From Sarea resinae (lineage: Eukaryota): 64,000 nucleotides of DNA. A model generated the notes under the pieces. That model was not told the origin of the DNA. It did not search any database and saw nothing but the letters and a program-made list of their open reading frames with translations. Numbering within the stretch: the first letter of the stretch is position 1; the number at the start of each line of letters is the position of its first letter. Of the stretch, positions 34,488 through 40,007 are shown piece after piece. A program made the translations under genes and the position numbers. The stretch is from positions 372,001 to 436,000 of the forward strand of contig JAPEUD010000001.1 of NCBI GenBank assembly GCA_026026165.1. The letters are read 5' to 3'.

Positions 34488-36159
34488 ATGACCTCTGATG
34501 CACGAGTCGCTGGCGACCCATTCGCTGATCCAAGCGATTCGGACCAGCAGCGAGATGTCCTTGTCGCCCTCGAATCTACCCTGTCCGTTGGGAGGGATGT
34601 TTCCTTGTCCTTGGGGACCGATTCATTGATTGTTTTAGGTGAGATCCGACTACTACTTATGGCATACCGACATGGCCTCCTGGGACTGACTCACGCCTTG
34701 TAGATGAAAGCTTGGTTGGGGCAGATCGTGGCCTTTGTTGCGGCATCATCCCTCGTGGTAAGACCAATACGCGCGGCGCAAGGAGCTCTCCGATGCTAAA
34801 CAACCAATAGCACCCAAGACCACCTACGCTGTCCCCTTATATAACGTCCTCTGGGCCGAACTCACCGAATTTGATTTAACTATCCACTACGCACGGTCGC
34901 AGTCGCAGGACAGCGTTCGAGTCGCATTCATCAATTACAGCATCGAAAAGACGGAGAGAGCTAGAGCATCAGCATGGATAGCCAGGCTTTTAGATCGGGC
35001 GTACGGAGAAGCGCAGCGAGAGAAACGGATTAAGGTGTTGATCAATCCATTCGGCGGAAAGGGCGCCGCTCAGAGAAATTACGTACGGGACATCGAGCCG
35101 ATACTTGCTGCGGCGCACTGCACGATCGATGTGGAGCAAACCAAGTATCAGGGCCATGCTGTTGATATTGCAGAGAAGCTAGATATCGATGCCTATGATG
35201 TCATAGCGTGTTGCTCCGGAGATGGCGTGCCGCACGAGGTCTTCAATGGGCTGGCGAAGAAGGGAGACGCAAGGAAGGCTTTATCAAAGATAGCAGTTGT
35301 GCAGCTCCCTTGCGGATCAGGAAATGCCATGAGCCTCAACCTCAACGGCACGATCAGCCCGAGCATAGCCGGACATTGCTTGGTCAAAGGGCTCCGAACC
35401 CCCTTGGATCTCGTCTCAATTACCCAAGGCGACCGCCGGACATTATCCTTCCTATCGCAGTCAGTCGGCATTGTGGCTGAGAGTGATCTTGGTACAGACA
35501 ACATCAGATGGATGGGAAGTGCTCGCTTTACAGTTGGCTTTCTCGTCCGTTTACTTCGAGACTCTCTATATCCGTGTGATATCGCCGTTGGGGTTGAAAT
35601 TGCGGACAAGCCTTCCATCAAAGAGCATTACGAGCGTGAGGTTCAGAAGCGGACGGTAGCCAAAAACAGGAGGGAAACTCCGGCGGTGATCGAAGAGTCG
35701 GCCTCTACCGCGTCCAATGACTCCAATAGCTTGCCACCCCTAAGATTCGGAACGATCAACGATTCTTTGCCCAAGAGCTGGAACATGGTTCCCTATGACA
35801 ACCTGGGCAACTTCTACGCAGGTAATATGGCTTACATGTCCAGTGACGCGAATTTCTTTCCAGCCGCTCTCCCGGATGATGGGTATCAAGATCTCGTCTG
35901 CATAGACGGTGACATTAGTCGGGCAGCTGCGCTGCGTGCAATGTTAGCAGTGGAAAAGGGCACGTTCTTCAACTTGCCTTATGTGGGCTATCGGAAAATT
36001 ACGGGCTATCGGATTATACCTAAGGCGCAAGGAGATGGCTACATCAGTATCGATGGCGAGAGAATACCCTTCAAGCCTTTCCAGGCAGAAGTACATAGAG
36101 GTCTGGGCACTGTGCTCTCCAAAAACGGGCAGATCTATGAAGCTATGGGACCACCTTGA
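34488..36159 (+). CDS. Sphingoid long-chain base kinase (Lcb4/Lcb5, DAGK family)
   Basis: 'LINPFGGKG', 'CCSGDGVPHEVFNGL', 'QLPCGSGNAMS', 'ESDLGTDNIRWMGSARF', 'ISIDGE'. A small second exon encodes GLCCG. An alternative in-frame ATG lies at 34431. Confidence 0.92.
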
Positions 36160-36299
36160 GCTTCTTCTCTGCTGTCGACTCTCATGGCAGGTTTATCTAC
36201 ATGTTTGGCGTTTTATTTATACCTTACTATTGTCGATACAGTTGCGGAACACTGTTGTGCATAGCTAGCCATTGTGCATAGCTTAAGAATTTACGTGTA

Positions 36300-37620
36300 G
36301 ATTTGTAGTTTAGAACATAGATTCATCTCAATTAAAGTTACTAGAAAGCCTTACACCGATGCTATTACTATATGATTCTGTTTAGTGGTAGTAGCTAGGT
36401 AATTCACTCTCTTCTACTACGCCCTTATTATTTTAAGCAGCTCTAATATTTGTTCTAGTCTGTTCTTAGATCTCTCTGCTATATCCTCTCTTCTTAATAA
36501 TCTAGTTAGTTTAAAAATATTATCTAGCCCCTTATAAAGTCTCTCTATCTAATTAAACTTAACCTTGTTTACTCTAACTTATAAAGTAGTTCTAGCAATT
36601 TCTTATATAGCTAAATGTATATCTATTCACTCTTATAAAGAGCGCTAATATATTATAGGTAAATACAAATATATAAGGTAAGTATAAACTAGAATAAGCT
36701 AGGTTGTTAGTAATTTTAGTGTATATAGTAATACTTAAGGTAGATACTAAGGTTTACCTAGGTACTAACCTATAATATATAGATTGATTATTAGACTAGA
36801 TTATTAAATAAAAAAGAGAGTTATATTACTACTTATTAATAATTTACTAAAATATAAATAAGAAAGTCTTTAAAGAGTAAGTTATTATAAAGACTCTACT
36901 AATATAAGCTTTCTCGCTTAGTATATACCTATTAGGTTACTAATCTAGTAAGTAAGTACTTACTATATAGGTAGGTAGGTACTTAAGTATCTATACTTAA
37001 CTTCTAATATCTATTAGATCTACTCTTAGAAGTAAAGTTATTCTTTACTACCTCTTACTCTTACTCTCTAATTTTTTTAAGTGATATAACTTTCTAAGCT
37101 AAGAATAAAATGCCGACTGTAAGTTTACTATATCTCTTTAAAAGTATATTATCTTTTTTATACACCTTTAATCTCTAGCTTTTCTCTTTATAACTTAATT
37201 CTAAGAGAAAGTTAGAATTCTAAGACTTAGATTCTAAGACATACTCTAATATATTACCTAATATCACTTAAGAAGATAATTGCTAATACTACTTAAAAAA
37301 CAGTCTAATAGAAGTCTATCTTCTAACTCCTTACAACAATATACTGTATGTTTTCTTAGCTTATATAGAATTACTAGATATTCTAACCTAATACTAATGT
37401 TAATACCTTATCTAGAACTCTAAAATTGTCGACTACAAAGTATTACAACGTGGTGTAAGTCTTACCTTACTATCTATCTACTAGTGTTTTTATAAAACTA
37501 AGTATATTGTTAAGAAGAACAAGTGATTTCCTAGTACAACCTGTACAGCTATTTGCTATACTCTGTCAAGACAAAGAAAGCTCTTAAAGGTTGTAAGAAA
37601 ATAGCCTAGAGGTGCTAATG
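36300..37620. other. AT-rich island with RIP-type mutational signature
   Basis: Hand counts give 10/60, 15/60 and 16/60 G+C in the lines starting at 36781, 36481 and 37201. The lines starting at 36721, 36841, 36961 and 37021 have no CpA, TpG or CpG and are saturated with TpA. Flanks are about 50% GC. Confidence 0.9.
36378..36620 (-). pseudogene. Possible RIP-eroded coding remnant of unknown origin
   Basis: 43 open codons at 36548-36420 (IERLYKGLDNIFKLTRLLRREDIAERSKNRLEQILELLKIIRA), bounded by TAG/TAA codons that could be C-to-T products. Confidence 0.3.
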
Positions 37621-39109
37621 AGGAAAAGATACTCCGCACCTATCTCAAAAACGTGTCAGTCTTAGTCCAACGCTATCCATTCAAGACGAAGACAGACTAC
37701 CTGCAGAAACACCCAGGAGGCAGCCGAACCGTGGAAGATCAGATGGGGACGGAAATAGAAGTAGTGCTGGCATTGATCTGTCCCCTTCTCGGGATTCTTC
37801 AGGAAGCCGTGACCGGAGCCACTTGAGACGCGGCCCGCAGAAAGATTACAGGGTGAAGCTCTCACTTACTCGACAGACAGACACCAAGGATACCACCAGA
37901 CGCGCATCCACGAACGGAGATCGAGTACACAAGGTAAGCAAGATACATGACTCTACTTTCCGTCTCGTGTCTGTTTCAATTGACACCCTTCCATTTCTCA
38001 TAATCTTGCTCGAACTCACTATCCATGCACGTGATCCTAACATCAAACCAGATACAGGATCCGATTTATTCCAATACTCTGTCTACATTGAACACCTCTA
38101 CGTCTCTGACCAGGTAGGTCATATTGATTTTCACGCGGCTCTCTTTGCTTTACTAATTTCAATAGAGCAGGAAGTAGGGCTCAGATCTCGGGCGTGAAGC
38201 CTCCTCTCTATGTTCAGAACAGCATCGATAATGACTGGCCGATCAAAAACGGCTTCAATCTGATAGAAGCGTCTATCTACCGAGAAGGTGTCTCTCTCGT
38301 AGAGGAGGACTTCAATGCTGGTTGTGACTGCGACCCGCAGGGCTGCGAAAATGCGTCAGATTGTGCGTGCCTGTCAGAAACGGACCTGAAAGATTCTCCC
38401 TATCATACGATAGGCATGAAAGCAGGAACCCTAAAAGACGTATATCTGGAGGGATCGGCTGCAATCTTTGAGTGTAATCAAAACTGTGCCTGCGACGAGA
38501 ATTGCCCAAACAAACTTGTCCAAAAAGGCCGCAAGGTACCACTAGAGATATTCAAGACTCACAATCGTGGGTGGGGTAAGCCTTCGTTGTTTATGGTACA
38601 CTCTATTTCTCCAGCCCCATACTGACTTCTCTCTAGGTCTTCGAACCCTAGTGGCTCTGAGGAAAGGGGAATTTGTTGATACATACAAAGGAGAGTTGAT
38701 TACTGAAGAGGAGGCCTCTAGGCGTGACGCGAAGCGCCAAGTGAAAGACGTTTACACCTTTGCTCTCGACAAGTTTCATGGCGACAACCCTGACAACGAA
38801 AGACTGCGAGACAACAAATATGTCATCGATGGAGAGGTTCTTGGGGGTATTACACGCTTCATAAACCATTCTTGCGATCCGAATCTCCGAATCTTTGCCG
38901 TCTCTTACAACCATGCAGACTTTTGCATCTACGACCTTGCCTTCTTTTCCACGGAGGATGTTCCCGCAAGGACTGAGCTCACGTTTGATTATACTGGACA
39001 GGAGGCGTCCGATAGTATTCCAGACCGTACCTCTTCGGGAGTTAGTAAGGAGAAGATGACGAGGTGCCTCTGCGGCAGCGAAAACTGCAAGGGAGTCCTA
39101 TGGATGTAA
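37110..39109 (+). CDS. dim-5: Histone H3K9 methyltransferase DIM-5/Clr4/ClrD (pre-SET, SET, post-SET); proposed 8-exon, 465-aa model
   Basis: Pre-SET GCDC..C..CAC...IFECNQNCAC..C, 'RGWG|LR', 'RFINHSCDPN', 'ELTFDY', post-SET 'CLCGSENCKGVLW'. Proposed exons: 37110-37118, 37304-37345, 37416-37454, 37535-37592, 37629-37933, 38052-38113, 38166-38575, 38637-39109 (1398 nt, open). Family call is firm; the first four exons are inferred. Confidence 0.85.
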
Positions 39110-40007
39110 AGATGAAGAACCTTTGAGTGAGCATGGAGAAGTGGGGCCCGGAGAGCGATGGTATGGGACTCGACGTTGATAGTGATTCTCGATTTGGGAA
39201 TGCATGCCACCACAGGCAGACCATTGAGCTTGCACACTTCTCGGGCGTTCTTTTTCGGCATGATAGAGAGGATCTTCTCATGAAGCGTTTCGCTGTTCCT
39301 TCTTTTTCTTCGATGAGCTCAACAAGGCTGTATCAGGTAGCATGAAGATTGATACCAGTCCCGAGAGTTCTGCTATCCCACGGCCTAGGAGAGGATCCAG
39401 CTCCTCAACTCGTGGCGGCCACGGTGCGCCATGCTCTCCCGTGAAGTTGGTGATGTTATGCAATAGGCCATTAAGCACGAGCGGAGACGCCCCATATTCT
39501 CATCCTGCATCTTTCTGGTAGTGGCCACAAGGATCCGACAACTCGAGTATTGCCATCGACATGGGCAGTGTTGTGAAGCGAACTGCTGAAGTGAGCAAAC
39601 CATTCTGATCTCAACTGCCGCTCTTGGCGGGTCCAGGTTTAGCAAGTGCTCGAGGCCGTGGCACACTTGTGGCGGGCCGTTGGAAGTACGAATAGTGAAG
39701 CCGATTGTACATTCACGTAGGTATGTCAGTATGCAGCAGTTTTCTGATCCCTTCAAGAACTAGACTACTGGTTCAGTATCAGACTACGAATACATGGTCC
39801 CATGCACGAGGGTTCAGGTCCAATTGAATTCCACGGGTGAAGGATCTTCTGCATGAACGTCTCAGAACGCCTCATCACATCAATGATCAGATCAGAAGCG
39901 TCCGACATGACGCCAAACCGATCATCAAAGTTGCAATCGAGTGATGAATAGCCTACCTGCCTTACTTTGCCTGAACTTGCCTTACCTCCTCACCTTCTTA
40001 CCCCTCA

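Follow-up and report, generated by a model that had tools for sequence, protein, structure and literature searches.

In the 64,000-nucleotide stretch of Sarea resinae DNA analysed here (contig JAPEUD010000001.1, positions 372,001 to 436,000; referred to as the window, with all coordinates given as window positions), a predicted histone H3 lysine 9 (H3K9) methyltransferase gene related to dim-5 of Neurospora crassa lies at the right edge of an AT-rich island that carries a repeat-induced point mutation (RIP) signature. Four exons on the + strand join into a single open frame of 416 codons that ends at 39109. Exon A (37629–37933) is normal in G+C content, Ser/Arg/Asp-rich and without an ATG, and its frame is open from 37622; exon B (38052–38113) is also an open frame and is shared with the public gene model P0001; exon C (38166–38575) encodes a pre-SET region with nine cysteines and the start of the SET domain; and exon D (38637–39109) encodes SET and post-SET, with the stop codon at 39107–39109. 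The three junctions are AAG/GTAAGC...CAG, CAG/GTAGGT...TAG and GGG/GTAAGC...TAG, the slash marking the end of the exon. We tentatively favour the view that the original 5' end of this gene has been degraded by RIP-type mutation and that the enzyme may now be started at an ATG inside the first intron.

The identity of the gene follows from its third and fourth exons. HMM matches to Pfam families place Pre-SET (PF05033, E 8.4e-16, 58.8 bits with a cut-off of 29.1) in the third exon and SET (PF00856, E 1.4e-17) in the fourth, and among solved structures the SET/post-SET exon best matches N. crassa DIM-5 (1ml9, E 1.9e-39), with Clr4 and SUV39H2 next. The nine pre-SET cysteines of the translation align with those of its relatives, NHSC and ELTFDY (which we take to be the SET-domain motifs) are conserved in the same alignment, and a post-SET C-x-C-x4-C near the C-terminus is common to all six full-length aligned proteins. 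A homologue search yielded 170 proteins at E ≤ 1e-20 out of 528 candidates, and the source names among the 120 homologues listed include dim-5, kmt1 and SUV39H. As judged from its sequence, the gene is a DIM-5/KMT1 (SUV39/Clr4-type) H3K9 methyltransferase orthologue with the corresponding predicted activity, and its predicted catalytic body (pre-SET, SET and post-SET) is intact; the gene body is also without a RIP signature. It has the Pre-SET, SET and post-SET architecture of N. crassa DIM-5 (KMT1; 1ml9/1peg), with no chromodomain found in Sarea, and if exon A is coding it differs from DIM-5 in an additional N-terminal segment of at least 100 aa that is rich in Ser, Arg and Asp and has no detectable homologue.

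The SET/post-SET exon (38639–39106) is 100% identical to P0001, a 306-residue hypothetical protein from a Sarea resinae metagenome-assembled genome. The initial annotation had predicted that an automated gene model would probably be truncated or called a pseudogene, and P0001 is indeed truncated, starting at an ATG (38025–38027, + strand) that lies within intron 1 (37934–38051). Reading on through the 3' part of intron 1 puts this codon in frame with exon B, and it leaves about 41 residues ahead of Pre-SET in P0001. In the spliced main frame the first ATG is at 38416, inside pre-SET, as had also been foreseen. The public model removes a further 51 nt as an intron (38363–38413, + strand), although this segment is in frame and most likely coding: its removal costs 17 residues, including a C-x-C with two conserved pre-SET cysteines that is kept by all five of the five aligned relatives, and the Pre-SET score falls to 43.2 bits in P0001 from that of the unspliced sequence. 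The public gene model is wrong twice, in its truncated N-terminus and in its false 51-nt intron. For fungal metagenome-assembled genomes, genes adjoining RIP islands need transcript evidence before their 5' ends are trusted.

The island (36200–37620) fills the whole intergenic space, with a near-saturated core at about 36500–37100 and graded flanks on both sides, and is the only such stretch within the window. Its GC content is 0.277 (0.504 for the whole window), TpA/ApT is 1.79 (0.75) and (CpA+TpG)/(ApC+GpT) is 0.43 (1.21); the usual RIP index thresholds are about 0.89 and 1.03. The number of surviving CpA, TpG and CpG sites per 50 nt is 9–11 at 36200–36300, 0–3 through 36400–37100, 1–6 at 37100–37650 and 9–10 beyond 37650. 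The simplest reading is that a repeat forms the RIP-mutated core of the island and that the mutation has leaked into the flanks on either side. A search for other copies in the window returned only two chance matches of purine/pyrimidine words, no Pfam family was found in the six island frames (translated with X at stops), and there are no convincing terminal repeats. A 29-nt inverted repeat (36489–36517 and 37490–37518, 83% complementary, arm spacing 972 nt) encloses most of the island; we saw no target-site duplication that would mark it as transposon ends, and it is probably a chance occurrence in AT-rich DNA.

A first coding exon beyond the island can be rejected, because the neighbouring gene on the same strand ends at 36159 and the island occupies the intergenic space. 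A chimeric or erroneous junction between the island and exon A, with the real upstream exons lying outside the window, is in our view very unlikely. The source is a metagenome-assembled genome and AT-rich repeats are hard to assemble, but the shift in composition has no sharp break and extends over about 200 nt (GC of 0.33, 0.43 and 0.54 in successive 100-nt bins), the contig spans 950,568 bases, and the upstream gene ends only about 40 nt ahead of the island.

Exon A is quite probably coding, or a recent coding relic, as far as its open frame and its position indicate. It is open for 104 codons, a degree of openness reached in 357 of 20000 dinucleotide shuffles; its frame has no stops while the other five have 2–6, and its donor restores the homology-supported frame, giving in-frame splicing. 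The three closest relatives have 135–268 residues before Pre-SET. Its codon-usage score is about 0 bits, no Pfam family was matched, and a search of 1.84 billion representative proteins for homologues gave two hits; each is a repetitive protein longer than 2100 aa with 25–26% identity, and we reject them as orthologues. Upstream of 37622 no frame is depleted of stops, and in the exon A frame there are eight stops in the 74 codons of 37400–37621, the second highest number of the six frames. A long ancestral exon running upstream in this frame is thus unsupported, its stops being as many as those of the other frames or more.

The closest relatives over SET/post-SET, among the matches listed, are proteins of Piccolia ochrophora (P0002, 577 aa) and two Thelocarpon (P0003, 523 aa, and P0004, 419 aa), with 63%, 60% and 59% identity. 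All three have the same conserved cysteine pattern as the Sarea protein, and each has a long low-complexity N-terminus before Pre-SET; these N-termini, however, align neither with one another nor with exon A or the island. In a tblastn comparison of six relatives with 36001–39200, no island match was better than E 0.27. We attribute a recurrent weak SET-like match at 37044–37130 to chance, because a comparison of purine/pyrimidine words revealed no gene copy inside the island. No close orthologue of the Sarea gene was present in the protein collections searched, and the P0001 metagenome scan gave 19 pattern matches, none of which was confirmed by tblastn. Residues 32–74 of P0002 have a sub-threshold Chromo match (E 0.0039; 17.5 bits, cut-off 25.1), which suggests that some close relatives may carry a Clr4-like N-terminal chromodomain. 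No Chromo domain was detected with Pfam in exon A or in the six island frames, and a chromodomain could have been erased by RIP.

The absence of an ATG from the main frame before 38416 raises the question of recent inactivation, in which RIP leakage would have destroyed the native start and early codons, leaving the body as a young relic from which no full-length enzyme is produced. Three stops fall within five codons of the start of the open frame, where the density of surviving sites is about half of normal, and the hypothetical protein of about 420 aa would match the relative P0004 in length. Any stop or ATA in RIP-type DNA, however, is one transition from a sense codon or ATG, and 416 codons remain open over four exons with the nine pre-SET cysteines, NHSC, ELTFDY and post-SET kept and with no sign of RIP; moreover, loss of dim-5 is costly in N. 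crassa. We consider inactivation unlikely. In the exon A frame, a single transition separates each of ATA 37601, TAG 37607, TAA 37616 and TGA 37619 from ATG or a sense codon, and the bases at -3 and +4 of ATA 37601 are A and G; this fits a native start destroyed by RIP and is no evidence by itself.

An alternative start within the island was proposed in the initial annotation, according to which ATG 37110 and a series of very small exons lead into the gene and have been kept by selection amid RIP. The motifs it listed are all present, and its first three junctions are in phase 0. The proposed exon 1 (37110–37118) is an ATG and two codons (ATG CCG ACT) followed by GTAAGT; exon 2 (37304–37345) has 14 codons, a CAG acceptor with GCTAAT ahead of it and a GTATGT donor; exon 3 (37416–37454) has 13 codons, a TAG acceptor with ACTAAT ahead of it and a GTAAGT donor; and exon 4 (37535–37592) has a TAG acceptor and ends at either 37589 (donor GTTGTA) or 37592 (donor GTAAGA), its open run stopping at TAG 37607–37609. 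All are on the + strand; exons 2 and 4 share the frame of exon A, with stop codons between. The four putative introns are 185, 70, 80 and 36 (or 39) nt long. Those at 37119–37303 and 37346–37415 pass all of the strict splice rules given below, and that at 37455–37534 has a strict donor and a TAG acceptor but only a CTAAG branch-like motif. These three introns, 70–185 nt long, each have a consensus donor, a branch-like motif of the CTAAT or CTAAG kind and a YAG acceptor.

The last putative intron (37593–37628) is the weak link of this chain. Exon 4 can reach exon A only through a 39-nt (GTTGTA) or 36-nt (GTAAGA) intron that in either case uses the AAG acceptor at 37626–37628, with a branch-like GCTAAT at 37614–37619; the intron contains three in-frame stops, at 37607, 37616 and 37619. 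AAG acceptors are rare. A de novo survey of introns in the window was rough and noisy (155 junctions, most of them false, of which the top-scoring were used); the nine best junctions bridging open reading frames are 49–83 nt long, and 35 of the 36 with a score of at least 7 measure no less than 40 nt. An intron of 36 nt would sit at the lower limit of intron lengths in the window, or beneath it. There are 12 + strand ATGs from 36160 to 38060, and of the nine in 36160–37621 only ATG 37110 reaches exon A under any of the three rule sets tested, which makes this the sole ATG-initiated path into exon A.

We counted as a chain any route that starts at an ATG, passes through open exons and GT...AG introns and arrives in the exon A frame, and enumerated them all. 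The strict rules (donor GT[AG]NG[TC], YAG acceptor, CT[AG]A[CT] branch, at least 45 nt) gave no complete chain from an ATG to exon A. With rules just loose enough to admit the proposed chain there are 70 chains, 15 of which join at or before 37700, all starting at ATG 37110; since exons 2 and 3 can each be left out, this number is inflated. Allowing one weak intron gives four chains in the real sequence, and at least one in 194 and at least four in 46 of 1000 dinucleotide shuffles. At rising leniency in the number of weak introns, at least one chain is present in 194, 261 and 299 of 1000 shuffles, and in 76–99 of 300 in a separate run on island dinucleotide shuffles. The existence of some chain is unremarkable. 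The real number of chains was matched in 6–16 of 300 and in 26–57 of 1000 shuffles.

The other features of the proposed exons are common in this DNA as well. Their windows are open, as had been claimed, but 27–39% of windows of equal length in 37110–37628 are stop-free in their own frame (172/477 for 14 codons, 185/480 for 13 and 126/464 for 18), and the six frames of 37100–37621 hold 24 stop-free runs of at least 13 codons. GTAAGT or GTATGT occurs seven times on the + strand of the island (1.7 ± 1.3 in shuffles) and twice on the - strand, and four of the seven are within the RIP core, upstream of ATG 37110. Since the shuffles under-represent these hexamers, the shuffle test is too kind to the chain model. 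Exon-like modules, defined by a strict acceptor, an open frame and a strict donor, number six in the core and three in the flank. For CT[AG]A[CT] the island has 18 occurrences on its + strand, where shuffles give 12.1 ± 3.2, and six on its - strand, and the + strand bias in the excess of splice-like motifs reaches into the RIP core.

Sites that have survived mutation were said to be concentrated in the proposed exons, and the raw counts agree: CpA, TpG or CpG occupies 17 of 141 slots in these exons and 17 of 377 other slots (p=0.004), and all three CpG of 37110–37628 are inside them, two in exon 3. When all four exons are placed at random, unconditioned, 348 of 20000 placements reach the observed 17. 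The enrichment weakens within 37400–37628 (13/92 and 8/136, p=0.06) and when exons 2–4 are placed in order in stop-free positions, where 1066–1600 of 20000 placements reach the observed 15 (p about 0.05–0.08). It is partly positional, because open runs at 37387–37621 in every frame and on both strands are dense in survivors (0.07–0.18, with 0–0.05 further upstream), and partly circular, because TAA and TAG are products of RIP and a stop-free stretch leaves them out. We regard it as no more than a hint of selection. The segment 37427–37454, the least mutated spot of 37100–37500, contains two CpG and four CpA/TpG and includes the palindrome GTCGAC as well as AACGTGG; rather than an exon, it may equally be a protected cis- or promoter element.

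Taken together, the stop-free runs, splice-like motifs and survivors are within or near the expectation for RIP-type DNA, and they do not bear out the proposal that purifying selection has kept the micro-exons; what is supported is an intact gene body, free of a RIP signature, and not selection on these exons. The micro-exon chain is the sole canonical way to give exon A a start, yet it is not clearly above chance. In addition, its promoter would fall in the RIP core, where only 0–3 sites survive per 50 nt, and no homologue of any part of it was found by tblastn, Pfam or protein search. On the other side, exon A is probably coding and the body is undecayed, so a working upstream start would be expected. 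We regard a start at ATG 37110 with three or four small exons spliced to 37629, as proposed or in a close variant, as somewhat unlikely, and the exact five-exon chain as quite unlikely. A real chain would mean that selection maintains a reading frame, its start codon and four introns within heavily RIP-mutated DNA.

The reading that we prefer, though at somewhat less than an even chance, is that the 5' end has been degraded and that the enzyme is at present started from ATG 38025. RIP-type C-to-T and G-to-A mutation, graded from the core into the flanks, has swept over the DNA upstream of 37622, and the promoter, the 5' untranslated region (UTR) and the original start must have lain in this stretch; that start would no longer be recognisable. 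Exon A would be coding now or have been so until recently, and the four micro-exons would be a by-product of RIP-type DNA composition rather than conserved exons. The present enzyme would be started at ATG 38025 either from a transcript that begins downstream of 37934 or from one that retains intron 1, and the predicted product of about 320 aa, with complete pre-SET, SET and post-SET, would be similar in size to N. crassa DIM-5.

Several observations weigh against this reading. ATG 38025 has T at -3 and is inside an intron with good signals, so it would be spliced out of any transcript starting upstream, and exon A, with its long open frame, splices in frame. From the long N-termini of the relatives one would expect translation to begin within the island. 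ATG 37110, which GTAAGT directly follows, carries A at -3, the real chain count exceeds that of 94–98% of shuffles, and the nominal enrichment of survivors, the location of all three CpG and the unconditioned placement test all lean towards the proposed exons.

RIP leakage into single-copy genes beside repeats has reportedly been described for Leptosphaeria maculans and in the OcculterCut survey. The Sarea locus resembles such systems in its RIP signature, graded from an AT-rich core into adjoining unique DNA, but differs from the other cases in that the gene hit encodes a predicted H3K9 methyltransferase, the enzyme that in N. crassa places H3K9 methylation on RIP-mutated DNA. One study (PMC4943192) states that leakage into neighbouring non-repeat regions can strike coding sequences. 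A full-text search found no literature linking dim-5 with RIP leakage in AT-rich DNA, and none was found on this locus or on a Sarea resinae transcriptome, the Sarea resinae literature found being taxonomic or ecological.

The position of the 5' end of a predicted H3K9 methyltransferase gene in the kind of DNA that its product silences in N. crassa could be coincidence, and it could conceivably also reflect self-limiting control. If the micro-exon chain were real, the promoter of a heterochromatin writer would lie inside its own likely substrate, which suggests control of this kind. In the fullest form of the idea, with the KMT1 promoter and first exons in RIP DNA, the kind of sequence on which this enzyme places H3K9me3 in RIP-competent fungi, more KMT1 would lead to more heterochromatin over the gene's own 5' end and hence to less KMT1, a DNA-encoded negative feedback in which selection would hold the start codon and splice sites inside the island; we consider this joint reading very unlikely. 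As Wang et al. 2015 (PMC4395908) report, clr4+ of fission yeast can become covered by heterochromatin in mst2/epe1 mutants, which lowers its expression, so that there too the gene of a heterochromatin writer is able to come under heterochromatin itself. The clr4+ case is epigenetic, involves no DNA change and needs sequences 3' of clr4+, whereas in Sarea the signature is fixed in the DNA and at the 5' end. The feedback, if true, would do genetically, and in fixed form, what the adaptation at clr4+ does epigenetically.

To the left of the island, the gene on the same strand is a predicted diacylglycerol/sphingoid-base kinase-like gene, whose last long open frame (34762–36159, + strand) has 465 codons and a stop codon at 36157–36159, with Pfam matches to DAGK_cat (E 1.8e-23), DUF7493 (E 3.7e-22) and YegS_C (E 3.2e-07). 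The 3' UTR of this gene must extend into the island at its left flank.

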